Assembly: GCA_963704755.1 (NCBI GenBank)
Contig: OY969938.1
Coordinates: 1,740,001 to 1,772,000 of the forward strand
DNA length: 32,000 nt
DNA from: an uncultured Chloroflexia bacterium
GTDB taxonomy: Bacteria; Chloroflexota; Anaerolineae; Anaerolineales; Anaerolineaceae
Reading direction: 5' to 3'
This document shows, in pieces, positions 578 through 18,183 of the stretch; position 1 is the first letter of the stretch; each line of letters opens with the position of its first letter. Under the pieces are notes generated by a model. The model saw nothing but the letters and a program-made list of their open reading frames with translations, searched no databases and was not told the origin of the DNA. Both the position numbers and the translations under genes were made by a program.

Positions 578-1921
578 CTACTCTACAGGGGCCAACCAAA
601 CCGCAGTGCCATACAAATATCCAAAATCAAAAACCTGGCGCTTTTCAACGTCAACCAGGTATGCAAACTTCCTGGCCTGAGCCAATAAATTGTTGGCCAG
701 GAATTGTTTCCCGTCCGGTGACCAAACCACTCCACCGGGATTCCCATTAAATTCGTCATGGGTATACTCAACGATCGCGGGGTCCCATACTTCTTCCCGT
801 TTAAAATCATAGACCAATAACCGGACATCCGCTTCCTCTTGGACGTAAAAGGAAAGATACTGTCCATCCGGAGACCAGGCAATCCCGCTGGCCCACAGGA
901 ACTTTTCTGAAATCGCCGGATCAAGTAAAGACTTTTCATTCCCTTCCCGATCGACCACGGTCAATTCCAGGGTTTTATGTTCACCGGCATCTGGGACGAA
1001 AATGGCAAAGCGGCTCCCGTCCGGTGACCATGCGGGTTCAGAACTCCACGGCCGGGCTGTCAACGAAATCAGGTTTCGCCGCCAAATTTCTGCATTCGTT
1101 TTTAGGTCCCAAAGTGAGATTGCACAAGTCGGTTGGACTGGGTCGGCTTCATAATATATCACCATCGAAAGTGAAGGGTCGTATTTCGGGGCGACTGAAG
1201 CGCTATACCAGTTTGGAACAGGCCAAAGTCTCCCATCGATCAGGTTAGGAAAAGTCGGCGTGATCAGTTGCGACTGCTGAGTAACCAGGTTATATAAAAT
1301 GAGCCTGCCCAAAGGGTATGGGTTTCCAACCGGGTATAGAAAAACCTGGGTATTCGAAGGCCAGTAGGCTATACCACTTGCTTGCAGCTTATCTAGATCC
1401 ACCGACTGATAGGAATCTCCATCGGTAAGGATCATGGAGGTTTTTACCGCTGTTTTGCTGAGCTCTTCCCGGATAAATGCAGCATGACGTTGATCCGGCG
1501 CCATCATCTGATTGCTATTATTATCTGCGAAAATGCAACAATCTTGTATCGAAAGGAACACTTCTGGAGATGCCATATCGCGTTGATATTTATCTACCAC
1601 TGCATGGAAACCAACCCCCTTCTGAACCGGATTGAACAAAATCGTGCCATCTGACAGGCTTTCTTTGTCCATAGCCGGGGGATTAACCTGAGGGTATTCG
1701 GATGCCGTCATCATTGAAGTAGGTGTTAAACTGGCAAACGGGGAAGGAGACGGCGTCGATCGCATGGGTATCGTTTCGGCCGTTGCCGGCCCTGGCGGTG
1801 TAACCGTCAGAGTCGAAATGCCAGTTGCCGTCATTTCTGGAGATGGATTGTTACAGCCGGCCAGGCAAAGAACAATCACGAGAACGCCAAATATTTTCAT
1901 TGTTTTTGATGAGAAGTTCAT
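578..1921 (-). CDS. Lipoprotein with PD40/TolB-like beta-propeller repeats (family-1 propeller); immunity candidate of module 8
   Basis: 447-aa ORF. Signal peptide MKIFGVLVIVLCLAGC carries a lipobox; an alternative start at 1900 is possible. Repeated WSPDG/AWSPDG blade motifs. The C-terminal architecture is shared with the ORFs at 2426..3742, 4193..5560 and 12483..13758. Confidence 0.75.
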   Translation of the reverse strand: MNFSSKTMKIFGVLVIVLCLAGCNNPSPEMTATGISTLTVTPPGPATAETIPMRSTPSPSPFASLTPTSMMTASEYPQVNPPAMDKESLSDGTILFNPVQKGVGFHAVVDKYQRDMASPEVFLSIQDCCIFADNNSNQMMAPDQRHAAFIREELSKTAVKTSMILTDGDSYQSVDLDKLQASGIAYWPSNTQVFLYPVGNPYPLGRLILYNLVTQQSQLITPTFPNLIDGRLWPVPNWYSASVAPKYDPSLSMVIYYEADPVQPTCAISLWDLKTNAEIWRRNLISLTARPWSSEPAWSPDGSRFAIFVPDAGEHKTLELTVVDREGNEKSLLDPAISEKFLWASGIAWSPDGQYLSFYVQEEADVRLLVYDFKREEVWDPAIVEYTHDEFNGNPGGVVWSPDGKQFLANNLLAQARKFAYLVDVEKRQVFDFGYLYGTAVWLAPVE

Positions 1922-2425: not shown

Positions 2426-3742
2426 CTATTTCAACCAGCCCACAGGTTCGAATCCTTTTTTTACGATAGTTCCTTCCCCGGTTTGGATATCAAACACCAG
2501 TGTGGATGGATCATCATCTCCAGGTAGAATATAGGAAACAGCCAATTGATCGCTGGTTGGTGACCAGAAGGTCAAATAATCATAATTTTGGTTCCCGCTG
2601 TCGATGCAATAATCAGTAATGGATTGGGTTTGGGTATCCAATACGGCCAACTTCTGGTCGGTCCAGATGCGATGGGAGTCGTTGGTATACCAAAATGCCA
2701 GATAACGACCATCGGGAGACCAAACCAGTTTGGAGATCGAAACCGTCTCAAACGAGGAACTTAATTTGCTTGTGAGTAGGCTTTGACCATCTCGACCAAT
2801 GACGAAGATTTCGTACGCATAAGAGAGGTCGCTCGCCGGCACGAGTGGTGCAGTGTTGATGGCGACAGCAAATTTTTGGCTATCTGGTGACCAAGCCGGC
2901 CAATTGCCGTAAATATAAGTGCTTCGCAAGCTTGCCAGATCGGTGCCTTTCTCCATGTCTCGTAAAACCAGAACATGACCATTATCCTCATTGGAGGGAT
3001 ACACCATACGAGTCATCGTCGGATCATAGACATTTTAAAATGAACCAAAATATCCCCATTCAAGCAATGGTTCAAATACGAAGTTGTAGTCGGGAAGGTA
3101 AGGTTCTAGTAATTCTTGTCTTTGTGGCGATTCGAAAGGAGATACCAGCAATACCGAATTATCGTCGCGGTTGGGAGCGTTCATGAGGAATTGTTCATCG
3201 TTCAACCAGAAGTATTCGGATGGCTGTTCTAACGGTACCTGGGTAACCAAATTGGCCAACCGATCATAGATTTTTATGAAACCACTCGGACCTAAAGTAG
3301 AATAGATTCTTGTTGAAAAATAGCTACCCCCAGAAGAGGTATTTTCCGATAGAAAACGGTCTCCGCCAGGTGGTGAGATATATTGACCCTGGTTGGTTTC
3401 CAGGTCGAGGAACAAGATGTTTTTTAGGTTTTCCCGAACCAGATTTTCCATCACCAATATGCCTGGCAATTGGCCAGCAGGTTTGGGATTTATGGTGATG
3501 CACTGAATTTCTATCGTACCAGATTGTGCGGTTGGGGTCAGAGTAGGAGAGGATACAGGCACTTGTACTTGTGTTGCTGATGTTATTGCATTTGTAGGTA
3601 TAAGGCTTTCAGTGGTCGCGGTCCTTACAACTACGGAAGGTTTCACACTTTTGTACAAATTACACCCGGTAAGCACGACACACAAGGCTAACAGATTCAC
3701 AAAACCGAAGTAAACGAGCACAGAACGATCATTCCGGTTCAT
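2426..3742 (-). pseudogene. Family-1 PD40-like beta-propeller lipoprotein interrupted by a single in-frame TAA (module 7 immunity candidate)
   Basis: ORFs 3035..3742 and 2426..3016 are in the same frame, separated only by TAA 3035..3037 (...EWGYFGSF*NVYDPTMTRMVYPS...). The joined length of about 438 aa matches the paralogs. Signal peptide MNRNDRSVLVYFGFVNLLALCVVLTGC. WSPDS/WSPDG motifs. Ends ...PVGWLK like 4193..5560. Confidence 0.7.
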
Positions 3743-3765
3743 TGGCTTGATTTATTCCCAGGTAC

Positions 3766-4169
3766 GTCAAAACCAGTATCACTGTATCCCCCAACCAGGC
3801 TGCTGAAAAAACTTCACAGTAGCCGGTCACCAACAGAGCACCGGGGATACTGGTCCCTGGGTTTCTTTTATAAAAAGCATAATGAATATATTGGTTAAGA
3901 TTATATCCATTGATTTATGCTATTTTTCGCAATAAGGTGGCAAAGCTGAAGAAATGGCTGCTTGACTTTGGGTTCTCCCTTAAATAGTCATTGGGATTTC
4001 TGACGTCGTTGTTTGCGTTGACGTAGGTTCCACCTGGTCTTTTACCGCCCCCGAAGTAGTCTCCGGGGAAAGAGTAAACGCCGTCAAACTCATCCCAACC
4101 GCCGCCGCCATCACCAGTGCGATAATCAAACCATCCCACTTACCGCGTTTTTTCTTGCGGCCGAAGATC
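3766..4169 (-). pseudogene. Cassette stub (module 7): junction/signal-peptide block with lipobox Cys->Phe plus about 300 nt duplicated from the 14.1-14.5 kb cassette; no effector domain
   Basis: The signal-peptide frame reads IFGRKKKRGKWDGLIIALVMAAAVGMSLTAFTLSPETTSGAVKDQVEPTSTQTTTSEIPMTI*. The whole segment aligns by eye with 14062..14470. No ATG/GTG start lies in the selected frame. Confidence 0.6.
4078..4169 (-). repeat. Junction block copy 1 (FGRKKKRGK-WDGLIIALVMAAAVGMSLTAF)
   Basis: Hand alignment with the other six copies. GC-rich relative to its flanks. Confidence 0.85.
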
Positions 4170-4192
4170 GGCGTGATAACCGCATTTTGCGA

Positions 4193-5560
4193 TCATTTCA
4201 GCCAGCCTACCGGCCTCGCCTGATCTGCAATTTTCGTAATGGTATGGTTTTGAAGGTCCACCCAAAGAGTGCTGCTTTGCCAGTCTTTCCAATCCTCGAT
4301 TAGCAGAGATTTGCTATCCGGAGACCAGACGGGTCTGGTTGTATTTACTTGTCCCAATTGTGGGCCAAGATGGATATCATCTCCAAAACGAAATGGCCGC
4401 GAGTTTAGCTCCTGACAGAAGACATCCACTTTTTGGGTTTCCATATCTAATACTGCCAGTTTGCCTGTGTTCTTCGGAAGATTGGTCAAAAGCCAGAATG
4501 CAACGTAGCGGTTGTCAGGAGACCATACCGGTGAATCAATCAATAAATCCGGATAATCCTCCCGAAAGAAACTGACTTGCATCATCTCACCGGTTGAATT
4601 GATGAGATATAACTCATCGTGCCTTGTAAAAGGATCATTCTCCAAATCTGTAACCAGCAATAACTGGCTTCCGTCCGGTGACCATCTTACCCAATCAACA
4701 CGATTTATGGTTGAAAGTACCTTATTCTTTTTCACATTCCATAAGATTGAGGTATGCTTGTTTGAATCAAAATAATACGCATCATACAAAACCAATGAAG
4801 TATCAGGGCTATAGATGAGTGGAGACCCCCATGTCCAATAGATATCTCTATAAAAAATATTCGGAAAATTCGAGGACAGAATGTGTTGTTCATGATCAGA
4901 TAGGTTGATCGAAACCAGATCGTATACTGCTGTGCTTGTTGGATCCTGTAAATCTTCGCCATTTACGTACTGCCGGAAGAGAAGTTGTTCATTATTCAAC
5001 CAACCGAAAAAAGTCCAGCTTTCTGGAAATGAAAAGCGGTCGTATTCATGGCCATTGGAATCCACAATGTTTAGGTCTGCAGAAAAGTGTAAAGTTTTCC
5101 CTTCTGTTAATGCCAGTTTTTCCTTGTCCGGGGATTCGGCATAGATATAATATTCTGGTCCATCGGGCAAATCATAAAAAGAAACCTGGTTTAACTGTGG
5201 GTTCCAAAAAGTCAGTTTTGAGCCTGTATCCGGTTCCGGTATCCATAGCTCATCCCTTGTCAATTGATCGTCAGCGGCAAAGACAAGCGTTCCATCCAAA
5301 TTTGGTAATTCTTTAATCCCGACAATTTTCTCAGGGCAATAGGTATCGATCTCAAACTTATTGGCAGCAAAAGTAGGAGTCAAGTCTTTGATAGGTGTTG
5401 GTTGAAGTATCTCCGCTGTTTTTGTTGGTTCCACGGTTTGAGCACGGGTGCTTATTACAACCGGTACTTCCGTTCTCTGTGGTTGCTCTTTCGGAACTGC
5501 GGTACAACCCACCAGCAAAACCAGGAAAGATAACCCTAATGAGCTTCGAATACTTTTCAT
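4193..5560 (-). CDS. Family-1 PD40-like beta-propeller lipoprotein (module 6 immunity candidate)
   Basis: 476-aa ORF in the track. The probable start is MKSIRSSLGLSFLVLLVGC (ATG 5560), which carries a lipobox. Motifs RWSPDG, VWSPDN and VWSPDS. Ends ...RPVGWLK. Confidence 0.8.
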   Translation of the reverse strand: MKSIRSSLGLSFLVLLVGCTAVPKEQPQRTEVPVVISTRAQTVEPTKTAEILQPTPIKDLTPTFAANKFEIDTYCPEKIVGIKELPNLDGTLVFAADDQLTRDELWIPEPDTGSKLTFWNPQLNQVSFYDLPDGPEYYIYAESPDKEKLALTEGKTLHFSADLNIVDSNGHEYDRFSFPESWTFFGWLNNEQLLFRQYVNGEDLQDPTSTAVYDLVSINLSDHEQHILSSNFPNIFYRDIYWTWGSPLIYSPDTSLVLYDAYYFDSNKHTSILWNVKKNKVLSTINRVDWVRWSPDGSQLLLVTDLENDPFTRHDELYLINSTGEMMQVSFFREDYPDLLIDSPVWSPDNRYVAFWLLTNLPKNTGKLAVLDMETQKVDVFCQELNSRPFRFGDDIHLGPQLGQVNTTRPVWSPDSKSLLIEDWKDWQSSTLWVDLQNHTITKIADQARPVGWLK

Positions 5561-5626
5561 TGTTCGCCTTAATTTCAAGAACCGGTGTTTAGGACGATGG
5601 CCATTCACCACATAGTCTCCCATAAT

Positions 5627-5914
5627 TTATGTTGGTTTTAGTATCATTATACAAGTAGCTGTGGGTGCTTCTGTCGGGGACTCTGTAGCTGCAGGTAACG
5701 TAGATTCGATCTTCGCCGTTGCATTGATTTCATCGTTTGGCGCTGGTGTTGCGGTTATTGTTGCTGTTGCTGTAGGAGTTTCCACGGTCGTTGTCGTTGT
5801 GCCAGGCGTACACGCCGTCAAACTCATCCCGACTGCCGCCACCATCACCAGGGCGATAATCAAACCATCCCACTTGCCGTGCTTCCTCTTGCGGCCGAAG
5901 ATCAACACCAACAA
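5627..5914 (-). pseudogene. Cassette stub (module 6): junction block + Thr/Pro/Ala linker only, effector domain missing
   Basis: LVLIFGRKRKHGKWDGLIIALVMVAAVGMSLTACTPGTTTTTVETPTATATITATPAPNDEINATAKIESTLPAATESPTEAPTATCIMILKPT*, with the stop 3 nt before the next gene's longest ORF. The only possible start is TTG, with no RBS. Confidence 0.5.
5811..5912 (-). repeat. Junction block copy 2
   Basis: cacgccgtcaaactcatcccgactgccgccaccatcaccagggcgataatcaaaccatcccacttgcc... About 59% GC by hand count. Confidence 0.85.
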
Positions 5915-6046
5915 AGTGGATAAATCTTTGAGGCATGAGAGTTGAACTAGCCAGTTTAGGCATCGTGGGTGAGGAAACGTCTAATAATCTTCCTCGGGTT
6001 CAAGATTTCTGGATTCGCTTAGGAGCCTTTAGTTTTATTTTATCTA

Positions 6047-7297
6047 TCATCTAATAATTTGATATTTATAAATTTTATTGTATACGACCATCCAAAGATT
6101 GTGCTGGCTATCCTCTTTTACTGGACTATAGCCATTCGTTATCATACACCATTTACCTTTTTCATATCCCTCCCGAATATCTAGACTTATTACACCACCC
6201 GTGGTGCTAAACCAAACTAAGCCATTTGAGCTTTCAAATATTGCCATTGTTTCAACCCAACCGTATCCTGGTTCGGGCGACTCGGCGTATCGGATAAACT
6301 CGGGCGGTGGAATAAGTTTATAAAATACTAAGTGTTCAGTATCGGAAAAGTCTACCCATCCTTCATGATCCAACCAGAAACGTTGCGACCAATCGAAATA
6401 TTTTGTTAATGGCTGGCGTAACAAATTCGAGAGGTCAATAGAGGGGATATCGGGTTCATTATTCGTTATACTATCAAATAATTTTGTCGTTTGATCATCT
6501 ATAAAATATTGAATTATTTTTCCATTCACTTGATCCTCACTCCACAGGCTTGATCCATCAGGAGCAATATTCAGAAGAAGAAATTCGCCTTGAAGTTGTA
6601 GAGGTTGGCGTTCAACTTCTAATGTCTCTGGATCGAAGCTATAAAGCGTTGACACATTTAAATCAGCATCTTTTACGAACATCCAGAATAACCCTTTGTT
6701 ATCTTCTACGACATCCGAACGAATCTCTCTGGGTGATTGTAAAACTCCCTGGTTATCCAAGATGAAATTAAATCTATCAATGGAAGCATTGTATTGACTA
6801 AGTAAAGGTATACCTTCTTGGTGCGATTGAAATACGTAATTTTCCGCCCACAATATTCCGTTTTTACTAAAGAATAATTTGTGTATCGGCAAAACGAAGT
6901 CATTTTTATCCAGTGTATAAATTTCCTTTTCGTTTTTATCCAAAGAATAAAGAACCAGTTGATTTTGCCCACCATCTCCATATGAAATCCAAATTTGATC
7001 GCTGTCATTTATTGCAAAATCCATCAGATAGGCATCATCTGGAATGGATCCAACTAAATTCCATTGAATAGGCGGAATTTCTTCAATTGTTCGCTGTTGT
7101 ACATCTCCCCCCATCGGAATGACTCCAAGGGAATTAATTGGTTGAATGCACTCGTCTTTTGTTACAAAATGGGTAGTCGCGTCCATCTCTCTGGATCGAT
7201 TTCTGGTTTCTGAAATTATCCCACTACATGCGAAAAGCAAGAAAACAAAAAATATGGGGATTCCATGTCTAATTAGTTTTCTGTCCATTAATGACAT
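6047..7297 (-). CDS. Beta-propeller lipoprotein of a different type (two-component-regulator-propeller-like G.LW repeats); module 5 immunity candidate
   Basis: The track ORF runs 6047..7315 with a TTG start. The ATG at 7297 gives MSLMDRKLIRHGIPIFFVFLLFACSG, which has a lipobox. Repeated QIWISYG, GILWAEN, GLFWMF, SLWSED, GLVWFST and NLWMVV motifs. Confidence 0.7.
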   Translation of the reverse strand: MSLMDRKLIRHGIPIFFVFLLFACSGIISETRNRSREMDATTHFVTKDECIQPINSLGVIPMGGDVQQRTIEEIPPIQWNLVGSIPDDAYLMDFAINDSDQIWISYGDGGQNQLVLYSLDKNEKEIYTLDKNDFVLPIHKLFFSKNGILWAENYVFQSHQEGIPLLSQYNASIDRFNFILDNQGVLQSPREIRSDVVEDNKGLFWMFVKDADLNVSTLYSFDPETLEVERQPLQLQGEFLLLNIAPDGSSLWSEDQVNGKIIQYFIDDQTTKLFDSITNNEPDIPSIDLSNLLRQPLTKYFDWSQRFWLDHEGWVDFSDTEHLVFYKLIPPPEFIRYAESPEPGYGWVETMAIFESSNGLVWFSTTGGVISLDIREGYEKGKWCMITNGYSPVKEDSQHNLWMVVYNKIYKYQIIR

Positions 7298-7302
7298 CCG
7301 GT

Positions 7303-8161
7303 TTATTCTGTACAAGACCAGTTCATTGATTCCAGCACGTCCTGAAATACGTTATCGTTATTAGCCAGATCTATATGCTTAATATCTTTATATATTGGAT
7401 GATTTGCTTGCTCTAGATCCAAAATGGCCCTATCACCATATATAGCTCCTTTTATATTTATAAATATTGGATTTCTATTATTGTCTAGATCATTTGGGGT
7501 ATCGGCTAGAAACAGCGGGGTTTTTGAAGCAATATTGTCTGCTAATGTATCCATATCATTAATATTCGGATAATCAGGATATGCTGATAATGTTGGATCC
7601 AATAATACAATTCAATTGATCAAAGTAGTACCTATGATTGCAGAGGCAGTCAAAACAGCGACATCTGCTCCTCCACTATGACCAATAAAAATGAAATTTG
7701 CCTCTGAATTCTCGTTTTTTATTTGCCCAATTTCTTGTTCAGCCTCAGATGCACAATTTGTTTTTGGTGAACATGAATCGTAATTAATGGATTGAATCTC
7801 ATAATTATTGTCAGTGGCCCATTTATAATATGGCGAAAGCGATAGTCCCACACCGCAGGTTAACCCTTTTCCACAAAACAGAAAAACATAAGTGAAATCG
7901 AGAAGAAATTCACAAGGCTCTGGAGTTTCTACGGGAGATAATGTAAACGACATTGTCTGCTCACCTTCAATCGTAATGGCCGTTACATCAAGTTCATAAT
8001 TTTTGGTTTGGGGAATTGCTATCCATGTTGCAGTTACTGTTCCTTCACTATTATTGGCAGTACCACTGCTGCTTCCACACGCCGTCAAACTCATCCCGAC
8101 TGCCGCTACCATCACCAGGGCGATAATCAAACCATCCCACTTGCCGTGCTTTTTCTGACAT
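7303..8161 (-). pseudogene. Cassette (module 5): junction signal peptide + alpha/beta-hydrolase (lipase/esterase-like, GHSGG) domain, split by an in-frame TGA; ATG one nt out of frame
   Basis: ORFs 7612..8130 and 7303..7602 share one frame across TGA 7612..7614 (...IIGTTLIN*IVLLDPTLSAYP...). The nucleophile elbow FIFIGHSGGADV lies before the stop; candidate Asp (VLLDP) and His (IKHID) lie after it. ATG 8161..8159 sits just upstream of the block in the wrong frame (see findings). Confidence 0.65.
8088..8157 (-). repeat. Junction block copy 3 (QKKHGKWDGLIIALVMVAAVGMSLTAC)
   Basis: Hand alignment. This is the shortest copy; homology starts at the basic cluster. Confidence 0.85.
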
Positions 8162-8225
8162 TGTTATGATCAGATTTGCAACTATTGCTTGAAGCCAATA
8201 CATTTAATTGATTGATTGCTCTCAA

Positions 8226-8254
8226 ATTTAAACAAATCGTTAAATACATTGCAA
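8226..8254 (-). promoter_or_regulatory. Sigma70-like promoter candidate TTGCAA-17nt-TTAAAT upstream of module 5
   Basis: The minus strand reads taagaaTTGCAAtgtatttaacgatttgtTTAAATttgag, directly after the stop of 8258..9325. AT-rich context, so a chance match is plausible. Confidence 0.25.
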
Positions 8255-8257
8255 TTC

Positions 8258-9325
8258 TTAAGGGGCTAATGTCCAATCCGGTGAATCATTAAAACCTGGA
8301 AGATCAGTTAACTGGGTTATATTCGACCCATCTGGTTTCATTACATAGAGATTGTAATTCCCACTCAGGGTTGAAGAAAAAACAATATAATCGCCTCGCG
8401 GAGACCAAGAGGGATCAATATGGTTAATCAACGGAGTTGTTTCAGATCGAGGGGTAATTCTTAATATACAATCCTTGTTTGTGCCATCAGCGTTCATAAC
8501 GCTAATTCCCAAACAAGACCCTTGCAAAGAATTAAACGCAATTTGATTACTATCAGGCGACCAGCGAGGCGTTTTATCCATAGTGAACTGACTATTATTT
8601 AGCCCGGTTAATTGCCTTAGGATCGTGCCACTAATATTCATTAAATAGATACTTTCTGGTGAATATCTACTATTAATATTCTTTCTCAGAATTGCTGATA
8701 TTGCAATCACATCTCCATTTGGAGACCAGGATGGTTGACCTTTCCAATCGCTATTATTTGTTATTTGTTGTTGCTGTGAACCGTCATTGTTAATTATATA
8801 GTATTCGCTGGCAGAAGTATCTGGGTTTGAAATGTAAATGATTTTTTTTCCATCTGGTGACCAGGTGGGATATCCCGCACCAGTTGGAGTTGTATCTTGT
8901 GTTAGCTGGCGTTGATCACTGCCATCCGCATTCATAACAAAAATTTGAGGAAGCCCTCCAGTGCTTCCAGTAAAGGCAATTAGTTTTCCATCTGGTGACC
9001 AGACTGGGGCGTATCCAGAAACCAAATTGGGAGTTAGGTTTTTCAACCCAGTTCCATCTGCATTGATTACATACACATTAAAAGAAGCATCAAATACGAT
9101 TTTCCCTTCTAGCGAAGATAAATCGAGTCCCCCTTGAGTTCCTTTCTGAACTGGCATAAAGGTTGGAAGTGAAGTTTGTACAAATGTAGATGTAGTAGTT
9201 AAGGTAGCGGTCAAAGTGGAGTTATTTGCTTCTGGGCCATTCTCAAGGCTTGCCACACACCCCATGAACAATAAACCCACAAAAAACAATAGCATGATAT
9301 CGTATTTGTGTTTTAGGTTTCGCAT
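8258..9325 (-). CDS. Canonical TolB-like PD40 beta-propeller lipoprotein (module 4 immunity candidate)
   Basis: 355 aa. Signal peptide MRNLKHKYDIMLLFFVGLLFMGC. Regular PD40 blades: VWSPDGKLIAFTG, TWSPDGKKIIYIS, SWSPNGDVIAIS, RWSPDSNQIAFNS, SWSPRGDYIVFSS, plus VINADGTG / VMNADGSD / IINNDGSQ / VMNADGTN / VMKPDGSN turns. AGGTG RBS 5 nt upstream. Confidence 0.85.
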   Translation of the reverse strand: MRNLKHKYDIMLLFFVGLLFMGCVASLENGPEANNSTLTATLTTTSTFVQTSLPTFMPVQKGTQGGLDLSSLEGKIVFDASFNVYVINADGTGLKNLTPNLVSGYAPVWSPDGKLIAFTGSTGGLPQIFVMNADGSDQRQLTQDTTPTGAGYPTWSPDGKKIIYISNPDTSASEYYIINNDGSQQQQITNNSDWKGQPSWSPNGDVIAISAILRKNINSRYSPESIYLMNISGTILRQLTGLNNSQFTMDKTPRWSPDSNQIAFNSLQGSCLGISVMNADGTNKDCILRITPRSETTPLINHIDPSWSPRGDYIVFSSTLSGNYNLYVMKPDGSNITQLTDLPGFNDSPDWTLAP

Positions 9326-9332
9326 GACACAC

Positions 9333-10172
9333 CTATTGAATGATTTTGCTCACCCTGGAAATAAAGTGGGTATTTTCCCCATATGCGTTGTCAAAATCGG
9401 ATTTTTTCATTGCACCTACAAAGTTGTCCAATTGTCCTAATCCATTTTGGTTGCCTACTTTTAGGTCAGAACCTGTATCCGCTACAGTAAAAACTTTTCC
9501 AGGATAAGCATCGATCATAACTTTATCGCCACACGCTAAGTCAGGGTTATTAGTGGCTACCGTTTTCCCTTCTTCGATTGGATATGAATATTTGCAAGAA
9601 CCTCCTTTTTTATAAATAAACACGAATTTTCCATTCTCTTTATCACTCAAGCCATCATCAATTGAGATGTAATGGTTATCCGCAGTGAGACCTGTACCCT
9701 GGACAAGGACACTCCAATGTTGATCCGTGGCATCGTCGTCCTCATAAATAAAATCAACATTATGAGTTTGAGTTTCGATTTTGTTTCCAACTTTCACCTG
9801 AATATCTATCGAACGGTCAGCCCAAGATGAACGAACACTATCATATTTATAATAATCATCACTCTCCATTGGTATAGTATAGTGAGTTATTAGGAAATCG
9901 TAATTAAATGGAATGCTTACTTGGGTTGCCGTCGCGGTGCAATAAGTGGGAGACGATGTTACTGTTTCATCAGTTGAGGTAACCGTGGTAGAAATTGTTA
10001 CTGCTTCAGTTGGAGTTCTGAGTCGGCATCGATGTAGGCTCTATAACAATTTCATCCGTTCCTGTAGAAGTCGTCACCGTTTTACTACACGCCGTCAAAC
10101 TCATCCCGACTGCCGCCACCATGACCAGGGCAATAAGCAACCCGTCCCACTTGGCACGTTTCTTCTTGCGTC
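9333..10172 (-). pseudogene. Cassette (module 4): junction signal peptide + Thr-rich linker + 3D (MltA/YuiC-like double-psi barrel) domain, one frameshift in the linker
   Basis: The signal-peptide frame reads RFFRRKKKRAKWDGLLIALVMVAAVGMSLTACSKTVTTSTGTDEIVIEPTSMPTQNSN* with its stop at 10007..10009. The body frame opens after TAG 10041..10043 and reads TPTEAVTISTTVTSTDETVTSSPTYCTATATQ...MESDDYYKYD... The body ends with ACGDKVMIDAYPGKVFTVADTGSDL...LDNFVG, the 3D-domain Asp pattern. No start codon precedes the basic region. Confidence 0.65.
10088..10172 (-). repeat. Junction block copy 4
   Basis: Hand alignment. Confidence 0.85.
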
Positions 10173-10258
10173 TAAAGAATCTATCTAAAATTTGCCCGAA
10201 AAAGCTTGGGAGAATAATTCGCCCATTACCATAACAGCCATGGGACGAAAATCAATAA

Positions 10259-11290
10259 TTAATCCATTGAATTCCACCATACTGCATCGCCAATATTTAT
10301 ACTTTCTGATGTGCGGATTATTTGGGTCAATCCTGTTCCGTCAGAATTGATTGCATAAATTTTGTAGTCACCATCTAGGTTGGAATTAAGTAGGATATGT
10401 TTACCATCAGACGACCATGTGATTCCTGAAAAGTAGATAAGGGCATTGGATGATTGTTTCAGCAAACAATTTTGCTCAGTCAGATCGAAACTATCGATTT
10501 CGATCCCAACGCATTGAGAAGTTCTTCGATCAGGTGAATAGGCAACCCACTTCCCATCTGGAGACCAAGCTACTGGCCCAGTTGTTACAAGCTCAGGATA
10601 TTCCTTTTGGACGATACCATTCTCATCTACCACATAATTAACGAATGAAAATCTAGTATTAAACTCCGAAATCGCAATCAGCCCATCAGCACGGTAATAG
10701 CCCGTCAAAGGAATATCGTCAGGTTTTTTCTCCACAACAAATCGGTGTCTATCTGTTCCATCTGATTTCATAATATAGATTTGAGGCACTGATTTGCCGT
10801 TAATATTTACAAACTCATCATCAAATGAACCGAACATAATAGTTTTTCCATCCGGAGACCAGGAAGGTTTAAAATCACTTTTATCCCCAGATGTTAATCG
10901 GGTAAAGCCAGAGCCATCGGGTTTAATAATGTATATCCGATATATATCACCTTCCCACGCTGAAAAGGCAATAGATTTTCCATCAGAGGCCCAGGAAAGA
11001 TCGCCAATATACTTAAGACTCGGAGGAGTAACATCAACCTGATTACTGCCATCCGCATTCATAACTTGAATATGATAGTCAGGCATAACACCGGTTATAA
11101 AGGCAATTTTTCCGGTAAGAAATGCCAATGGCGAAGTAGCTGTTGCCAAACCAGATTCTGTTTCTGTTAATGAATGAGTGGGTTGTTGAGTAGGCATAGA
11201 TTCAAAAACAGAGCACCTAGAAAGATTGGTTATGGCAAGGAAGATAATATAAAAGGCCTTTATTATTACGATAACAAAATTCTTTCTCAT
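10259..11290 (-). CDS. Canonical TolB-like PD40 beta-propeller protein with N-terminal signal/anchor (module 3 immunity candidate)
   Basis: 343 aa. Motifs VMNADGSN, SWASDGKSIAFSA, IIKPDGSG, SWSPDGKTIMFGS, IMKSDGTD, AWSPDGKWVAYSP, TWSSDGKHILLNS, AINSDGTG. Its start overlaps the upstream stop as ATGA (11287..11290). Confidence 0.85.
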   Translation of the reverse strand: MRKNFVIVIIKAFYIIFLAITNLSRCSVFESMPTQQPTHSLTETESGLATATSPLAFLTGKIAFITGVMPDYHIQVMNADGSNQVDVTPPSLKYIGDLSWASDGKSIAFSAWEGDIYRIYIIKPDGSGFTRLTSGDKSDFKPSWSPDGKTIMFGSFDDEFVNINGKSVPQIYIMKSDGTDRHRFVVEKKPDDIPLTGYYRADGLIAISEFNTRFSFVNYVVDENGIVQKEYPELVTTGPVAWSPDGKWVAYSPDRRTSQCVGIEIDSFDLTEQNCLLKQSSNALIYFSGITWSSDGKHILLNSNLDGDYKIYAINSDGTGLTQIIRTSESINIGDAVWWNSMD

Positions 11291-12338
11291 GGTTGCACTC
11301 GGGCTGCCTTGAAACGTTTCCCATCATATTGTGTAAATGAGGGATTATGATAATAATTATCGTAGGTCTGTGCACCCACATAAATATCGAAGTGATCTGG
11401 GCCACCATCGGGAACCGTAAAGGTTCCCGAATCACTTACCGTAAAAACTGTGTTCTCGAATCCCGGAATGTCTAGATAATATTTATCACCACATCTATGA
11501 CCGTCCTCCAAATTCAATTTATCGCTGGCAACGGCAATACTTGCGTTTTCTGTCAATGAAATACCGCACGCGCCATGAATTTCGTTTGTAAAGTAATACA
11601 CAGCGCTGGGCTGCCAGTTGTTAACTGGATCGGGGAGGTGATTCTTATCAACGTCTGCTTGAACATATTTCAAACCTCCACTCATTTGCAATGATTGAGA
11701 TTCGGTTAACTCACCTGACCCTTGAAGGGATACACGCCAATTTCCACAGTTACCCTCACATGCATTTCCAACGTAGAAGGCATATTTAGGAACTTTATCG
11801 TAATAAATATCTGCTTTGCTTGAGAAGGGTGGTGAATAAAATGGCACATATTTTTGAAGATTTTTATCTTCGGAAGAAAAAAAAGGATCGTTTTCTGTCA
11901 CTGTAGCATAATGAGTGATTAATACTGTATCTGCGAGCCAATCCCTCAGAGCTGCTGTCCCAGTGCATAGAGTAGGTGTAACCGAAGGAGTCGGCGTTGG
12001 AGTTTGAGTTTTCTGTGTGATTGTTGCCGAATAATTAAAAGTCTGTGTTGCCGTTGATGGAGGCATTACCTGTCCTTCTATTGTTGCCGTGGGCGTCTCC
12101 GCCGAGAAAGAACATGCTGTCAAGGTAACACCGAATGCCGCCACCATGACCAACGCAATGAGCAGCCCATCCCACTTGCCACGCTTTTTCTTGCGCCCGA
12201 AGACCAGCGCCAGCAGGGCCAACGGCGCCACCAATGAGGCAGACGGGTCCCAGGGAACATATGGGTTGGTCTGGTTGGTTTTGGCGTCGCGGGTGAGGAA
12301 GCGCCCGGTAGATGGGTCATAATACTGGCCGTTGCCAA
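11287..12338 (-). CDS. Only uninterrupted cassette (module 3): Rhs-core remnant + hydrophobic/KKKRGK/lipoprotein-signal-peptide junction + Thr/Pro linker + 3D (MltA-like) domain
   Basis: The stop-to-stop frame is open from 12338. It reads VGNGQYYDPSTGRFLTRDAKTNQTNPYVPWDPSASLVAPLALLALVFGRKKKRGKWDGLLIALVMVAAFGVTLTACSFSAETPTATIEGQV...TPTPTPSVTPTLCTG...SIAVASDKLNLEDGHRCGDKYYLDIPGFENTVFTVSDSG...HFDIYVG. There is no ATG; the first alternative start is TTG 12234, so independent translation is doubtful. Confidence 0.7.
12112..12338 (-). repeat. Junction block copy 5, extended with Rhs-core remnant, core and signal peptide in phase
   Basis: Hand alignment. This is the most diverged copy, and most of its differences are synonymous in the signal-peptide frame. 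Confidence 0.8.
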
Positions 12339-12482
12339 CTTAACAGAGGCAAGTTATTAGTCCCATAATGCCACTCAATTAACCAGAGCAAAATTGAGCC
12401 CTACAAAATACTAACATAATTGCAATTAAGAACAAATAGCGGAATGGGAAAAAGAAATTATTGTCATTAACTTTGGCTTCAA

Positions 12483-13758
12483 TTAATTTGGTTTTACAAT
12501 CCATCCAATGGCATTAGAATCAGTGGCAAGATTATATAACTTTCGGGTTTGAATATCGACCAGGAGTAACTCACCAAAACCATTAACATCTGTATTGGAT
12601 ATTGCCAAAAAATGGCTGTCGGGTGACCAAACTGGTGGTACATTCTCATTGTTTGCTGAAGGCAGGGCGTTGATACAAAAACCTTGGGGAACCTCTGAAT
12701 GTAAATCCAGGATTATGTATTTTGAATCGGTTTCCCCGTTCCAATCATACTCGATTTGGAAGGCCAGGTATTTTCCATCCCAAGACCGGCTGGCTTTTGA
12801 AAAAACTGGGGGGCTTTTGAGAAAACTGTTGAAATTTGTAATTCGCTTGATATCCCCATTTCTGGTGATTTGATACCATTCTATCCCGTGATCTGGCCAA
12901 ACATCCATGATCAAAAAGTCGCTTCCATCACTTGACCAAAGTGGATTGTTTGTCCAACTTTCATAAAAATAATCCAGTTTTGCCACAACGGAGTTATTTT
13001 CAATATTCCATAATGCCAAATAAATCATGTCATCCGATTCTTGGGGATAAACCAACCGGGTAAGCGTAGGATCGGGCAAAACATCCCCATGTCCAAAAAA
13101 ATTTGGGGATGCTACGCCGCCCGATTTAAAGGTTTTATAATCCGGTAAATCCTCCAATCGGAATACATGTTCCTTTTCTGTGAATGGATTCCAGATAACT
13201 GTTGTAAAAAAACCTTCTCCATTTATTTGGTGGGTGATAAGTAATGAATCCTTGGAAAACCAGCCTTCTAAAAAGTGATAATCTTCTTTTCTTACTTTCT
13301 GACCTTCCGAACTACCCACTAAAAAACTAGAAACAGGTTCTACAGCAGAGAGAGTCTGGTCATTATTTTGATAGGCGACCCATTTCCCGTCCGGCGAAAT
13401 AAAATAATTCCATGGAAAATTCTCAAGAGAAATGTTTAGATCAACCTTTTTATTGGTATCGAAACTATACAAAGCTGGGATCCCTTCATGCACGACAAAC
13501 AGATTCCAAGGAAGATCGTCGCCGTCTAGAAACGAAGAAGATGTTTCCAAACAACCTGAGAATAACAAATCCTGCAAACTTTGTACTTTTGGTTGTGTCG
13601 TTATTTTTGTAGGAAGCAAAATAGGGGTAGTATTTTCTCCTCCGCTAGTCGCTGTGGGTTGATCGGAAATGCTAGAAGAATTTAAAACTGTGGTCACTGC
13701 AACCGATCAACAGTATAGTAACGAAAAAGTATCCGAGAAAAAATTTCCATTTTGGCAT
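12483..13758 (-). pseudogene. Family-1 PD40-like beta-propeller lipoprotein with a frameshift just after the lipobox (module 2 immunity candidate)
   Basis: ATG 13758 gives MPKWKFFLGYFFVTILLIGCSDHSFKFF*. The 404-aa body ORF (12483..13697) is in another frame that is closed upstream by TGA 13707..13709, so the shift lies within 13672..13707. The body has ISPDGKWVAY, LWSSDGSDF, SWDGKYLAF and VWSPDSHFLAIS motifs and ends ...AIGWIVKPN. Confidence 0.65.
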
Positions 13759-13787
13759 TTCTTGCCTTTCATTTCTCTTTATGGTTT

Positions 13788-14573
13788 TTATTCTGACCAT
13801 CGAGCCGGGTTATCGCAAAGTGCGGAATGAGTTATACCTCCTAATGGATTCGAGTTATTGTAGAAATTAAGTTGACAGAATGTGAAGGCATAGTAATTCT
13901 CTATATTAGCCCCAATCTGATTGATTTTTCGGCCAAATTTTTCCACTGTAGAAGATTTAGATATTACATTACTATAAAAAGTCGGATTAAATCCAGACTT
14001 GCTGTTTCCCCATTCTATTAGGGGATCATCTATCGCTGATCCTTCTTTCCAATGATCCATCAAAACCAGTGTCACTGTATCCCCCAATCAGCCTGCTGAA
14101 AAAACTTCACAGTAGCCGGTTACCAACAAAGCACCGGGGATACTGGTCCCTGGGTTTCTTTTGTAAAAAGCATAATGAATATATTGGTTAAGATTATATC
14201 CATTGATTTATGCTATTTTTCGCAACAAGGTGGCAAAACTGAAGAAATGGCTGCTTGACTTTGGGTTCTCCCTTAAATAGTCATCGAGAATTCTGACGTC
14301 GTTGTTGGCGTTGACGTAGGTTCCACCTGTCCTTCTACCGATGCCGATGGAGTCTCCGTAGAAAAAGTACACGCCGTCAAACTCATCCCGACTGCCGCCA
14401 CCATCACCAGGGCGATGATCAAACCATCCCACTTGCCGGTCTTCCCCTTGTGCATCAGCAGGGCTAATGGCGCCACCAGCGAGGCAGATGGGTCCTTGCG
14501 AAGCACCCTGTGGGCAGGGGACGTAGGGATTGGTCTGGTTCGCCTTGGCCTCGCGGGTCAGAAAGCGCCCGGT
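13788..14573 (-). pseudogene. Cassette (module 2): Rhs-core remnant + junction signal peptide + linker + unrecognised body; several lesions
   Basis: The remnant reads TGRFLTREAKANQTNPYVP. A 19-nt length difference relative to copy 5 puts it out of phase with MLRKDPSASLVAPLALLMHKGKTGKWDGLIIALVMVAAVGMSLTACTFSTETPSASVEGQVEPTSTPTTTSEFSMTI* (stop at 14273). The downstream frame is open to 13788 except for TAA 14208..14210 and TGA 14088..14090. I do not recognise the body domain (...GALLVTGYCEVFSAG*LGDTVTLVLMDHWKEGSAIDDPLIEWGN...) and its true frame is uncertain. Confidence 0.5.
14369..14573 (-). repeat. Junction block copy 6, extended with Rhs-core remnant (out of phase)
   Basis: 14487..14573 is identical by eye to 16709..16795 (87 nt). 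Confidence 0.85.
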
Positions 14574-14627
14574 GAAAACAAATCTTTAATATTAAAGAAT
14601 TAAAAGCACAGTCTTATCCTATTGCAT

Positions 14628-15658
14628 CTATTCATAAGGCCACAAATCTTTAGGGACCTGAATGCAATCTGGATAGTCTGAACTGGTAAAAGTGTTATAA
14701 AACTGATCAATAGACATAATTTGATCGATGGATCGATAGAAGTCCTTGAGGCGGCTTTCGCTCATCCATTTCCAATATTCTTGAGGAATATCTGCAACAA
14801 CATCAGCCAAACTTTTCGAACTCGTTCGGATTCCAGGAAATAATGGTAAGTTCATTAACCTGGCTCAAGCAACCAGTGAAATAATCACCTTCGATATTCT
14901 TAGGTAATAAATAATCAATCAAAAAACCTTGGCTCGGATAAAACAGCAGAACACTGAAAGGGATCCAGGACGATTGACGTGTAGGTACATCGTCTTCAGG
15001 GTCCGGGCCGAAATAAATATTTGTAGGTTTTCCATAGGCATTAAAAATTTGGGGTAACAAGTAATTGGCGTAATGAATTAGGAATGGCGATGTTTGATTC
15101 TTAAAAAATTCAGAAGATTTTTGGGTTTCAAAAACAGCAATATCTAAAAACAAATATTCTATTTCATTCCTTCCTCTATAGCGAAATGAAATATCCGTTT
15201 CCCAGTTGCCCTCCCAATCCATTAAATCTAGAGTTGAATCAAGCTCGGAAGATGCGCTATTTATATAATAATCACCCCAGGCATCAATATTCCCTGGTTT
15301 TCTGATAAATGCCAAAAAATCTTCCGGCGTTTGGGTTACAGGATTTATTCCCCAAATACAAGGCAAACTACAATCACCATTATTCTCGGAAATACCATAA
15401 AGAAAAGTCTTGAAATCAGAAGAGGTCATGGTCGGCGTAAATGTTTCGGTAAAGGAAGGCGTAATTGGGAAGGTGCCTTCTAGAGGTGGACTATTGATAT
15501 CCGCTTGAGTCGGTTTAATAAGAATTCGTAGGCGTATAAGTCACGACCGGAGACCAGGTTGAAGTTTCATTATAGGTGCCCACGCATCCGACCAACAAGA
15601 CCAGGAACCATAACCCGATCAATGGAAAATATATCTTTCTCAGTTGGATTTTATTCAT
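14628..15658 (-). pseudogene. Non-propeller lipoprotein with two frameshifts (module 1 immunity candidate)
   Basis: ATG 15658 gives MNKIQLRKIYFPLIGLWFLVLLVGCVGTYNETSTWSPVVTYTPTNSY* with its stop at 15515..15517. The 208-aa ORF 14803..15429 continues in another frame, open from about 15545 (IKPTQADINSPPLEGTFPITPSFTETFTPTMTSSDFK...). The 75-aa ORF 14628..14855 continues in a third frame. Confidence 0.55.
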
Positions 15659-15676
15659 AACGATTTTCCCAAGAAA

Positions 15677-16808
15677 TCAATTATTTGAAGGAAAAGGCGG
15701 GTTACCCGTCAGCCAAAGAGGCGTATGCTCGTTCATATAATCCCTCCTTTTCGTCCCCCAACTGTTTGCATCAATATCAACAAATCCTGCTCCATCATAA
15801 ACCCAACTCAGAAACATATCCGCAAATGCTTCACGATGCTTAATAATATCATCCTCAGGATTATTAGGTCTTACAGGATGCATTCTTCAAAGCATCGTTT
15901 GATATTCTGGACCTGGATAGTTAAACCCTGCAATTGTTAGAAATTCGCCATATGGATACGATAAAGTATATGGACTGCCAAGGACATATCCTTGTTTACC
16001 AGATTAGTCTTTATATGCCCAGAGATTCGCGAATGCATGACCTAACTCATGAATTACATTATGCACATTCATCTCATGGGCCATCTCAGGGGTTCTATTA
16101 TATTCGCCAGTCGCAGATTTAGATGGATCATAGAATGGCTTTTGAACTGCAAACTCTATCCACCAGGCTGAATGAGTATAACCACCTGCCCCATTACATG
16201 CAGGCAGGTTCCGACCAGAAATTTCAACTTATGGGATGCACTTAGCCGAAATATACTGATAAAACTTGTTATCGGATCCTTCCCTAAAGTACGCCCAAAT
16301 GCATTTGCCACCAGGATCACTGCGTCCTTGAAGTAGGATTTGTATTCGTCGATAACATCAACAAATTGTATAAGGTCCCATAATTCATCCCATCGATCGA
16401 TGGTGGGTTCAGGGGTTTTGGTTATAGTAGCCGTACAAGTAAACGTCGGGGGCGCTGTTACAGGCGGTGGGGTTTCTGTTTGATTAGGAACAATCGTCTT
16501 ACCAGTAGCTTCAACTGTATAATCTCCATTCGGTGTAGGCGTAGCCGTAATTTGGGCGGACAAGGTGGATGTATTAACCGCAGTTGGATCACACACCGTC
16601 AAACTCAAACCCACTGCCGCCACCATCACCAGGACGATAATCAAACTATCCCACTTACCACGCTTTTTCTTGCGGCCGAAGATCAGCACCAGCGCCACCA
16701 GAGAGGCGGATGGGTCCTTGCGAAGCACCCTGTGGGCAGGGGACGTAGGGATTGGTCTGGTTCGCCTTGGCCTCGCGGGTCAGAAAGCGCCCGGTAGATG
16801 GGTAGATC
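15677..16808 (-). pseudogene. Cassette (module 1): Rhs-core remnant + junction signal peptide + Thr/Pro linker + gluzincin-type metallopeptidase domain (HELGH ... EAFAD), decayed
   Basis: ORF 16156..16728 reads MLRKDPSASLVALVLIFGRKKKRGKWDSLIIVLVMVAAVGLSLTVC...TAPPTFTCTATITKTPEPT... There is then a frameshift within 16156..16228. My translation continues ...ACNGAGGYTHSAWWIEFAVQKPFYDPSKSATGEYNRTPEMAHEMNVHNVIHELGHAFANLWAYKD, then TAA (16004..16006), then SGKQGYVLGSPYTLSYPYGEFLTIAGFNYPGPEYQTML, then TGA (15887..15889), then RMHPVRPNNPEDDIIKHREAFADMFLSWVYDG... Confidence 0.65.
16591..16808 (-). repeat. Junction block copy 7, extended with Rhs-core remnant (out of phase)
   Basis: KIYPSTGRFLTREAKANQTNPYVP..., then the same 19-nt-longer variant seen in copy 6. 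Confidence 0.85.
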
Positions 16809-16831: not shown

Positions 16832-17059
16832 TCACACCGTGTGATACACATTTTTATTCCAATCCGACCAATCTTCGGGGCCATGATACATATATGGAAT
16901 GCCTTTGCTTATTTGCTCTAAGCTTGTTCTTTCAAAAACCCCACCTTTTTTAGGGTGAGTACCTGTCACCCAATTCCCTTGAGTATCTGTAATGGCAGCA
17001 TTTTCGGGGTCGTAATAGGACCTTTTTTTCGGAGGTGGGGTGGGTTGTCGGACATTCAC
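16832..17059 (-). CDS. Hypothetical 75-aa ORF at the island edge, in frame (across one TGA) with the first Rhs remnant; possibly a decayed Rhs fragment
   Basis: MNVRQPTPPPKKRSYYDPENAAITDTQGNWVTG...NKNVYHTV*NEDFADNKIYPSTGRFLTRE, with the TGA at 16832..16834. SYYDPEN weakly resembles the RYYDPE.GRF core motif. The start is GTG with no spaced RBS, and the frame opens inside the terminator hairpin. Confidence 0.3.
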   Translation of the reverse strand: MNVRQPTPPPKKRSYYDPENAAITDTQGNWVTGTHPKKGGVFERTSLEQISKGIPYMYHGPEDWSDWNKNVYHTV

Positions 17060-18181: not shown

Positions 18182-18183
18182 GA

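Follow-up and report, generated by a model that had tools for sequence, protein, structure and literature searches.

What is a block that reads as a lipoprotein signal peptide doing at the head of seven different gene cassettes, and is it kept there as protein, as a handle for recombination, or as both? The question is raised by a stretch of 32,000 nucleotides from an uncultured Chloroflexia bacterium (GenBank assembly GCA_963704755.1, contig OY969938.1, positions 1,740,001 to 1,772,000), which was analysed in its full length and will be referred to as "the window". An earlier reading of the letters alone (the sequence-only reading) had described the block as a signal peptide under selection and as a possible homology handle. 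Positions 578-16808 (minus strand) are an orphan Rhs C-terminal toxin/immunity cassette island in an Anaerolineales-type genome. The explanation that we favour, with a probability of roughly 0.7, is that the block is the conserved head of the C-terminal regions of these toxins and a recombination handle, and that the payload would be matured as a lipoprotein through the module that the block encodes. The locus is an ordinary orphan toxin/immunity island on an unusual Rhs variant.

Seven copies of a coding block

A repeat search of the window yielded one family, composed of seven copies of 120 nt (4053-4172, 5787-5906, 8054-8173, 10064-10183, 12089-12208, 14346-14465 and 16568-16687) with 66-81% identity to the reference copy and 1734-2267 nt between neighbours. 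All seven lie on the minus strand, as do all large open reading frames (ORFs) from 578 to ~29,800, and the places previously given for them are confirmed. The description of the block as GC-rich also holds, G+C contents being 54-62% in the blocks, 37-45% in the cassette bodies and 55% in the housekeeping flank; a GC-rich conserved part beside an AT-rich variable part is the classical Rhs pattern. The copies will be named by position, the one at 16656 heading cassette A and those at 14434, 12177, 10152, 8142, 5875 and 4141 heading cassettes B, C, D, E, F and G, respectively. Additional upstream homology is common to the copies of A, B and C.

Translated from the minus strand, each copy presents a basic cluster followed by KWDGLIIALVMVAAVGMSLTAC or a near variant of it. 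The in-frame translations are GRKKKRGKWDGLIIALVMAAAVGMSLTAF (4141), GRKRKHGKWDGLIIALVMVAAVGMSLTAC (5875), QCQKKHGKWDG...LTAC (8142), RRKKKRAKWDGLLIALVMVAAVGMSLTAC (10152), GRKKKRGKWDGLLIALVMVAAFGVTLTAC (12177), MHKGKTGKWDG...LTAC (14434) and GRKKKRGKWDSLIIVLVMVAAVGLSLTVC (16656). The n-region, h-region and lipobox anatomy proposed by the sequence-only reading is recovered, with the PROSITE PS51257 pattern (scored with a supplied pseudo-N-terminus) present in five of the seven copies. The wider statement that all copies encode this arrangement is accurate for most of them: the 4141 copy ends in LTAF, with Phe replacing the lipobox Cys, the GRK part is absent at 8142, and the 16656 copy ends in LTVC, with V at position -1. 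Similarly, most copies lack an initiator Met, as had been stated, the one at 14434 being the only copy with an in-frame ATG.

Compared with the 5875 copy, the 66-nt core shows 34 nucleotide differences, of which 21 are in third positions and 20 in synonymous codons, nearly reproducing a previous count by hand of ~22/34 synonymous third-position changes. Variable columns among the seven copies are distributed as 6/5/14 over the three codon positions, and a codon-aware test resulted in a pooled pairwise pN/pS of 0.17 in the signal-peptide frame vs 1.64 and 2.02 in the other two, consistent with the claim that the former is the selected frame. The related claim that the block is maintained as protein can be accepted in part: the codon pattern speaks for it, but the signal is mostly historical, derived from full-length genes, and six of the seven local payloads are broken. 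Integron-like attC repeats were also considered and ruled out, since the repeats are coding and show a clear codon-position bias.

An internal module after the Rhs core

The 12177 copy reads in frame from GNGQYYDPSTGRFLTRD...NPYVPWDPSAS, the end of the RHS repeat-associated core, into the block; the upstream in-frame sequence of this copy (12112-12338) is GNGQYYDPSTGRFLTRDAKTNQTNPYVPWDPSAS-LVAPLALLALVFGRKKKRGKWDG... The same Rhs core DNA is found upstream of the 14434 and 16656 copies, but frameshifted relative to the module. Metagenome homologues of the 99-residue stretch reach further upstream, ...YTPWGD...GLLYVGNGQYYDP (...YTPWGD...GLLYVGNGQYYDPxTGRF), and several of them carry PF25023 or the source name "RHS repeat-associated protein". 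At the junction, TIGR03696 (Rhs_assc_core) scores 38.7 bits in P0031 and 37.6 bits in P0007, both over the 32.5-bit cut-off; the window copy, with 15.3 bits, is below it. The general form of the junction is ...YYDPxTGRFLTRx...NPYVPW-DPxGA, then a first hydrophobic segment (h1), a basic cluster, a second hydrophobic segment (h2) with the lipobox Cys, a Pro/Thr-rich tether and a variable enzyme; h1, basic cluster, h2 and lipobox together constitute what we call the module. By this homology, the block corresponds to the initial ~45 codons of the polymorphic C-terminal region in Sec-exported RHS/YD-repeat proteins, that is, an internal module after the Rhs core and not a free-standing N-terminal signal peptide. 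The suggestion that it forms the N-terminus of independent lipoprotein genes has consequently been abandoned: the module is internal, in frame at 12177 and in frameshifted remnants at 14434 and 16656, and the orphan copies have no credible starts from which a product could begin with it.

Relatives were collected from a scan of one genome per species, where the junction was found in ~36 loci, almost all of them in Anaerolineales or Chloroflexota metagenome-assembled genomes, and further junctions came from a metagenome scan; the identity of these relatives is 79% or below. Eleven are full-length genes (L007, L009, L010, L016, L019, L024, L025, L026, L029, L093 and P0032), nine of them from the genome scan, L093 from the metagenome scan and P0032 being a complete protein of 2,762 aa. 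Between 1,553 and >3,300 residues precede the junction in these genes, several of them limited by the contig end. The full-length genes tested contain 17-24 RHS/YD repeats (RHS_repeat, 22 in L007 and 17 in L024; YD_repeat_2x, 24 in P0032), and a Sec-type signal peptide, as judged by eye, is present at the start of all five with a complete N-terminus. In L007, L009, L010, L016 and L026, tandem orphans (one to four per locus) come after the main gene, beginning with a core remnant and the module.

Of 79 family junctions, 77 have the module (50/52, plus 27/27 from the metagenome scan), as against none of 53 canonical Rhs junctions of other lineages searched with the same pattern (L037-L073, mostly Armatimonadota). 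For 47 family junctions, the uncharged run of h1 has a median of 17 residues and h2 one of 20 residues, and the net charge of the basic cluster goes from +4 to +6 (median, +5). The PS51257 lipobox is found in 39 of these 47, including 8/8 main genes, and a looser, four-residue lipobox-like pattern in all 27 metagenome junctions. The eight junctions without a PS51257 lipobox come from 2-3 genomes, and several have an h2 with an AXA-like end, e.g., SSIAMPVQA. In L005, L015 and L016 (e.g., L016:7740, L016:10628 and L015:1932), h2 is devoid of Cys and has this AXA-like end, SSIAMPVQA followed by A; judged by these ends, the module seems to exist in a signal-peptidase-I flavour as well. A search with a profile of the module alone returned seven short fragments and no non-Rhs context.

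A separate observation concerns the Rhs-core coding DNA of orphan cassettes, into which a ~27-nt palindromic element, GGAG(TT/CC)T(A/G)CCCTGAG(N5-7)CGAAGGG, is inserted at two recurrent sites (after GNGQY and after GLI), bringing an in-frame TGA. It has been found in at least six different Anaerolineales metagenome-assembled genomes (L007 ~12440, L013 ~4680, L022 ~12440, L027 ~9980, L033 ~1030, L034 ~4005 and L035 ~160), and in none of the block copies of the window, and could represent a small insertion element or a trace of how orphans arise.

Recombination of orphan Rhs, CdiA and MafB cassettes through a conserved junction is established, and the related genomes contain the alternative joins at the block that such exchange would leave. 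Payload C is the C-terminus of the full-length P0032 and is also joined to core and module in P0024, P0031, P0034 and P0044, with a different module sequence variant in each of these fusions. The full-length Rhs gene of L025 has a C-terminus 56% identical to payload E. Cassette A matches L075:7727-10096 with 74% identity and has other neighbours there: a homologue of the cassette G propeller of the window precedes it, and a different payload, P0017, follows it. To judge from these joins, cassettes are reshuffled at the blocks between related genomes, and the proposal that the block acts as a homology handle for swapping cassettes into an expressed locus was essentially right, as in relatives it joins full-length genes to homologous payloads. 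At the DNA level, the GC-rich block (~90-230 nt) would thus provide the homology for recombination of a cassette into a full-length rhs gene.

The same context bears on the view that the block is a working N-terminal lipoprotein signal peptide, and the island a set of seven independently translated lipoprotein operons starting at TTG, GTG or ATG. The complete n-region, h-region and lipobox in five of seven copies would be expected under such a view, several copies have in-frame TTG or GTG codons upstream (the 14434 one, an ATG), and gene callers do choose starts of this sort, such as a GTG within h1 (P0022). Nevertheless, three heads have Rhs-core coding DNA upstream, in frame at 12177, and the junction is internal to proteins with ~1,900 to >3,300 upstream residues; at 8142, the first possible start would remove the entire basic n-region. 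Moreover, payloads are broken or absent in six of the seven cassettes, and promoter-like sites are no commoner than in shuffled sequence (32 vs 38.2 +/- 5.8 expected), the promoter/terminator scan being uninformative. We therefore regard independent lipoprotein operons as clearly unlikely.

Cassettes, payloads and candidate immunity genes

The cassettes, all on the minus strand, follow one layout of head, Pro/Thr-rich linker, payload and second gene, with seven differing downstream regions behind one conserved junction. Only cassette C has an intact payload. Its head (12112..12338) contains the in-frame Rhs core end GNGQYYDPSTGRFLTRDAKTNQTNPYVPWDPSAS and the module LVAPLALLALVFGRKKKRGKWDGLLIALVMVAAFGVTLTAC; its payload ORF (11287..12234; 315 aa as listed), the sole intact cassette ORF, comprises module, Pro/Thr-rich linker and a 3D / MltA-like payload; and a PD40 beta-propeller of 343 aa (10259..11290) is the candidate immunity gene. 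The two genes share 4 nt, an overlap suggestive of translational coupling. In public gene calls, these cassettes begin at spurious internal codons, namely a Met 56 codons in for P0021 (= window cassette C), with loss of the module, and the GTG within h1 for P0022; as a result, the link to Rhs and the module are lost from annotation.

The other six payloads are truncated, frameshifted, nonsense-interrupted or absent. The head of cassette A (16591..16808) has an out-of-frame Rhs core-end remnant, PSTGRFLTREAKANQTNPYVP, then a short hydrophobic segment, GRKKKRGK, a second hydrophobic segment and LTVC; payload A (15680..16707), with no function assigned, is homologous to an intact 336-aa ORF in L075 and carries a frameshift at ~16204-16207, and the second gene (14631..15429), homologous to a 266-aa ORF in L075 and frameshifted near 14820, is a candidate immunity gene, not a beta-propeller by Pfam. 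Cassette B begins with an out-of-frame Rhs core remnant, TGRFLTREAKANQTNPYVP, and a module with an in-frame ATG, LLMHKGKTGKWDG...LTAC (14369..14581), followed by a truncated payload stub and downstream DNA (14060..14359) and by an open beta-propeller-like gene of 404 aa without a signal peptide at the called start (12483..13697). The head of cassette D is a module only (10087..10176), with a stop 27 codons past the Cys; the payload D remnant (9333..9869; 178 aa), in another frame than its head, is 27% identical to payload C and belongs to the same 3D-like family, and a PD40 beta-propeller lipoprotein of 355 aa follows (8258..9325; lipobox Cys, residue 23). In cassette E, the homology of the head (8077..8157) begins within the basic cluster (QCQKKHGKWDG...LTAC), the payload (7306..8130), an alpha/beta-hydrolase of the lipase class 3 type, is interrupted by a stop in its frame (7612-7614), and the partner is a Reg_prop propeller-like lipoprotein of 422 aa (6047..7315). 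Cassette F retains part of the first hydrophobic segment and the module in its head (5810..5914) and a Pro/Thr-rich linker (5627..5809) whose payload is gone, in front of a PD40 beta-propeller lipoprotein of 476 aa as listed (4193..5623). Finally, cassette G has a module with the lipobox Cys changed to Phe (LTAF) as its head (4076..4172), a truncated payload stub (3767..4066) and a beta-propeller lipoprotein gene (2426..3742) that is split by an in-frame stop (3035-3037) and has an intact, 51% identical counterpart of 416 aa in L075. At the distal end of the island lies another PD40 beta-propeller lipoprotein, of 447 aa and with an LAGC lipobox (578..1921).

The payloads of B and G are 30-residue stubs, each inside a 300-nt direct repeat (3767-4066 and 14060-14359) whose copies are 93% identical, implying duplication or conversion within the array. 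An identical plus-strand terminator-like hairpin is present in both copies, at 3841-3860 and 14134-14153.

Regarding function, payload E shows a GHSGG motif and a Lipase_3 match, as an alpha/beta-hydrolase. Direct Pfam and PDB sequence searches gave no match for payloads C and D; a profile run against 1.84 billion representative proteins found 43 relatives. Among the distant ones, two have a match to the Pfam 3D domain (best E, 4.6e-08), which links payload C to it, and one to an expansin-like double-psi barrel. MltA-type lytic transglycosylases take the first nine places among the Foldseek hits of payload C, but these are weak (E 0.2-0.6), were obtained with a poor AlphaFold model (mean pLDDT, 50) and can be taken as suggestive only. 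Payload C appears related to the 3D / MltA-like double-psi beta-barrel and is a probable peptidoglycan lytic transglycosylase. Among 38 C-terminal regions from relatives, with a mean column identity of 14%, Pfam recognised Amidase_6 (twice), Polysacc_deac_1 and Lipase_3, and NCBIfam, peptidoglycan deacetylase models; most of the 38 have no family match, and those assigned are all envelope-acting by domain prediction. No nuclease, deaminase or ADP-ribosyltransferase family was recognised by Pfam or NCBIfam in the 38 regions.

Most of the second genes code for beta-propellers (PD40, Reg_prop) that carry an ordinary lipoprotein signal peptide at the N-terminus, from which it is evident that the organism makes lipoproteins, and beta-propeller lipoprotein partners recur in L007, L016, L075 and L077. 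Propeller genes are open in cassettes B, C, D, E and F, in addition to the extra one at 578-1921; the cassette G propeller (in-frame stop) and the cassette A partner (frameshift) are broken. In our favoured explanation, the island would hold spare toxins in reserve and, above all, keep immunity genes in store. An alternative, which largely complements it, is that of an acquired interbacterial-defence (polyimmunity) cluster in which only the propellers are selected, against the Rhs toxins of neighbours, and blocks and stubs are inert debris that came along with captured toxin-immunity pairs. Propellers that are mostly intact (476, 447, 422, 404, 355 and 343 aa) next to mostly decayed payloads agree with it, as do the co-oriented, low-G+C genes beside a genome of 55% G+C. 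A similar orphan island in an Anaerolineaceae assembly (L077:1-721; GCA_035414945.1) starts right after a gene for a Phage_integrase (tyrosine recombinase) at the edge of the contig, and the rAID-1 clusters of Bacteroidales have the same hallmarks, i.e., recombinase, low G+C and repeated intergenic sequence (bioRxiv 10.1101/471110). On the other hand, the ORFs scanned in the 32-kb window included no recombinase, cassette C remains an intact pair with a 4-nt gene overlap, the blocks are coding remnants with a pN/pS of 0.17, unlike non-coding attC repeats, and two of the second genes (G and A) are themselves broken. A pure polyimmunity cluster is, in our opinion, a real possibility, although somewhat short of an even chance.

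The upstream flank of the island consists of a liv ABC-transporter and other housekeeping genes, and no tRNA gene flanks it. Between the first cassette head and the liv operon there is a 75-aa ORF (16832-17059) containing SYYDPENAAITD, with no family match; it may be one more degraded piece of Rhs. An ORF for a LivM-type permease (17132-18628) has an Arg/Gly/Pro-rich N-terminal extension of ~150 residues, with BPD_transp_2 starting at residue 206; the extension is probably an over-extended ORF call rather than real protein.

The autoprotease site and a proposed maturation route

To our knowledge, all well-studied Rhs toxins release an encapsulated toxin by aspartyl autoproteolysis. The RhsA autoprotease uses D1324 and D1346, either D-to-N change abolishing a cleavage that occurs after W1350 in PxxxxDPxG[W/L/F] (PMC8765631); R2103, D2116 and D2140 are the autoprotease residues of a bacterial teneurin-like protein (PMC13018210). 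From the spacing of these published residues, they correspond to the R of RYYDP, the D of GRFxxxD and the D of DPxG; aligning L007 to PDB 8h8a places QYYDPSTGRFLTRN against RYYDPKLGRFIQQD. The Arg position is Gln in 68 of 76 scorable family junctions. The first Asp is kept in 29/79 family junctions and in none of the 11 full-length genes, where Gly, Gln or Asn is found, and the second Asp is Asn in about half of the latter. Furthermore, the loop between both Asp positions has 13 residues in the family vs 22 in canonical proteins. In the control Rhs junctions of other lineages, Arg (52/52) and the first Asp (53/53) are invariably present. An aspartyl autoprotease site formed by Arg and two Asp is therefore not what the family presents, and, across the aligned junctions, the module and the decay of this site go together.

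How, then, might the enzyme be released? With a Sec signal peptide at the start of the chain, h1 followed by five to six positive charges would be a classical stop-transfer arrangement; a basic segment followed by a hydrophobic one is, in turn, the classical arrangement for re-initiating export. We propose that the N-terminal signal peptide would begin Sec export of the full-length protein, h1 would halt transfer, the basic loop would remain in the cytoplasm as the turn of a helical hairpin, and h2 would re-initiate export of the payload. Lgt and Lsp would then lipidate and cleave at the Cys (signal peptidase I in the AXA variants), thereby replacing the aspartyl autoproteolysis of canonical Rhs toxins and releasing an envelope-degrading enzyme as a lipoprotein on a long Pro/Thr linker. 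A lipoprotein beta-propeller would neutralise this enzyme within the same compartment. Such a model would account for the envelope-directed payloads, the exported partners, the conserved Cys and a dispensable autoprotease. Stated in full (Anaerolineales Rhs proteins with a decayed autoprotease, in which hairpin and lipobox may let Lgt and Lsp split one Sec-exported chain into a membrane-anchored Rhs body and a lipid-tethered envelope-degrading enzyme), the proposal is a tentative one, which we consider well under even odds.

The hairpin itself allows for a simpler role, that of a mere C-terminal membrane anchor of the Rhs body, with no cut at the Cys and the payload attached at the surface of the producer. 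Two hydrophobic segments around a basic loop are a standard helical hairpin, and teneurins hold an uncleaved C-terminal domain outside the YD shell (PMC8765631). A model in NCBIfam release 20, NF058595 ("lipo-invert putative C-terminal anchoring domain"; invert_tail), aligns from GRFLTR over NPYVPW, h1, h2 and the Cys and on into the Pro/Thr linker, and matches 19 of the 38 C-terminal regions at E <= 0.01 (best, 1e-08); curators have seen a related module, as this alignment across the region indicates. All its matches, however, are below the curated 37-bit cut-off (13.9-28.3 bits in five proteins; 22.0 for the window copy), and its name implies an anchor at the protein end, while 200-300 enzyme residues follow here; no publication on NF058595 or "lipo-invert" was found in our literature search. 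Furthermore, a lipobox would be superfluous for a plain anchor, yet it is present in 39/47 junctions by PS51257, with a lipobox-like motif in 27/27, and the Cys-less junctions end h2 in AXA-like sites (SSIAMPVQA), pointing to signal-peptidase cleavage. An anchor without cleavage seems doubtful to us. As a related candidate, a sortase or exosortase-type C-terminal sorting signal (motif, transmembrane segment, basic tail) was ruled out, since the ORFs run on into h2, lipobox and enzyme.

Alternatively, the C-terminal region might be encapsulated by the shell, delivered to the cytoplasm of the target and only there make use of the Sec, Lgt and Lsp of the victim to reach the cell wall compartment. 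Hydrophobic C-terminal domains do fit Rhs/YD shells, as in Tse5 and BiTLP, and the payloads require an extracytoplasmic location. Against this, the autoprotease residues needed for release are lost in 11/11 full-length genes, and ~300-430 residues follow GRFLTR in intact cassettes, vs an average of ~15 kDa for the encapsulated C-terminal domains of bacterial teneurin-like proteins, a size that their authors suggest to be limited by the shell cavity (PMC13018210). A detour through the cytoplasm of the victim would also be roundabout for a producer that exports by Sec, and we deem this route very improbable.

Our preferred reading, an orphan island whose block is both a recombination handle and the head of a lipoprotein-maturation module, has to face several points that weigh against it. 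Heads F, E and B differ mutually by just 1-2 nt in the 66-nt core; going by this similarity, part of the conservation of the block is due to recent duplication or gene conversion, not selection. With six of seven payloads broken, toxin switching out of the island may now be rare or impossible. No full-length rhs gene was found in the 32-kb window nor up to 15 kb upstream of the island, and a partner rhs gene for recombination in the source genome is an assumption. The in-frame window copy (12177) keeps both Asp, with Gln for Arg and with DPxG[L/W/F] reading DPSAS; hence, loss of the autoprotease is not proven for the window lineage. The topology and the Lgt/Lsp processing are wholly inferred, and h1 cannot also span the membrane should the post-core chain be housed within the shell, as it is in canonical Rhs proteins. 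Lastly, the beta-propeller lipoproteins are taken to be immunity proteins by position alone.

If the reading is right, this would be a route of polymorphic-toxin maturation not described before, based on an internal, C-terminally placed lipoprotein signal peptide, and a natural case of stop-transfer and re-export with Lsp cleavage inside a giant protein. It would widen the range of maturation and display routes of polymorphic toxins and introduce candidate immunity proteins of a new class. A whole clade of Chloroflexota, environmental and filamentous, seems to have exchanged autoproteolysis for a lipoprotein-type signal peptide inside the protein. The literature searched, including the comprehensive polymorphic-toxin survey of 2012, yielded no account of a lipobox or signal peptide following an Rhs core.

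Comparison with known systems places the island among several of them. The AID and rAID-1 arrays of Bacteroidales also consist of orphan immunity genes that are co-oriented, low in G+C and separated by repeated sequence (bioRxiv 10.1101/471110); immunity genes are likewise mostly intact in the window island, and the related island L077 adjoins an integrase gene. They differ in that the window repeats are coding remnants of toxin heads, with toxin parts that are still recognisable and one intact, and the recombinase typical of rAID-1 is not seen in the window. The Myxococcus SitA proteins, reportedly described in eLife in 2017, are polymorphic toxins that are lipoproteins; they resemble our family in that a conserved head precedes a variable toxin and an immunity gene lies alongside, but have the lipobox at the true N-terminus, no Rhs carrier, nucleases acting in the cytoplasm and delivery by outer-membrane exchange. 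Teneurins and bacterial teneurin-like proteins have the YD shell in common with the family (PF25023 matches). In metazoan teneurins the core is uncleaved and the C-terminal domain lies outside the shell (PMC8765631), so that a post-core chain can leave it; bacterial teneurin-like proteins, in contrast, keep the R/D/D site and encapsulate a small C-terminal domain (PMC13018210), and neither group has a signal-peptide-like module after the core.

The closest likeness is that to the orphan loci of Rhs (Escherichia coli, Salmonella, Dickeya) and WapA (Bacillus subtilis). These have in common with our family the YD/RHS repeats and the YYDPxxGRF core end, the abrupt change between a conserved part rich in G+C and a variable, AT-rich C-terminal part, the downstream partner gene and the tandem orphans retaining a piece of core as recombination homology; with WapA, also Sec-dependent export via an N-terminal signal peptide. 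What sets the Anaerolineales family apart is that it has for the most part lost the Arg and the first Asp of the autoprotease and has a loop of 13 rather than 22 residues between the two Asp positions, that the window island is detached from any main gene, that the payloads are predicted envelope enzymes instead of nucleases and their partners lipoprotein beta-propellers, and that a conserved hydrophobic/basic/hydrophobic/lipobox module follows the core.

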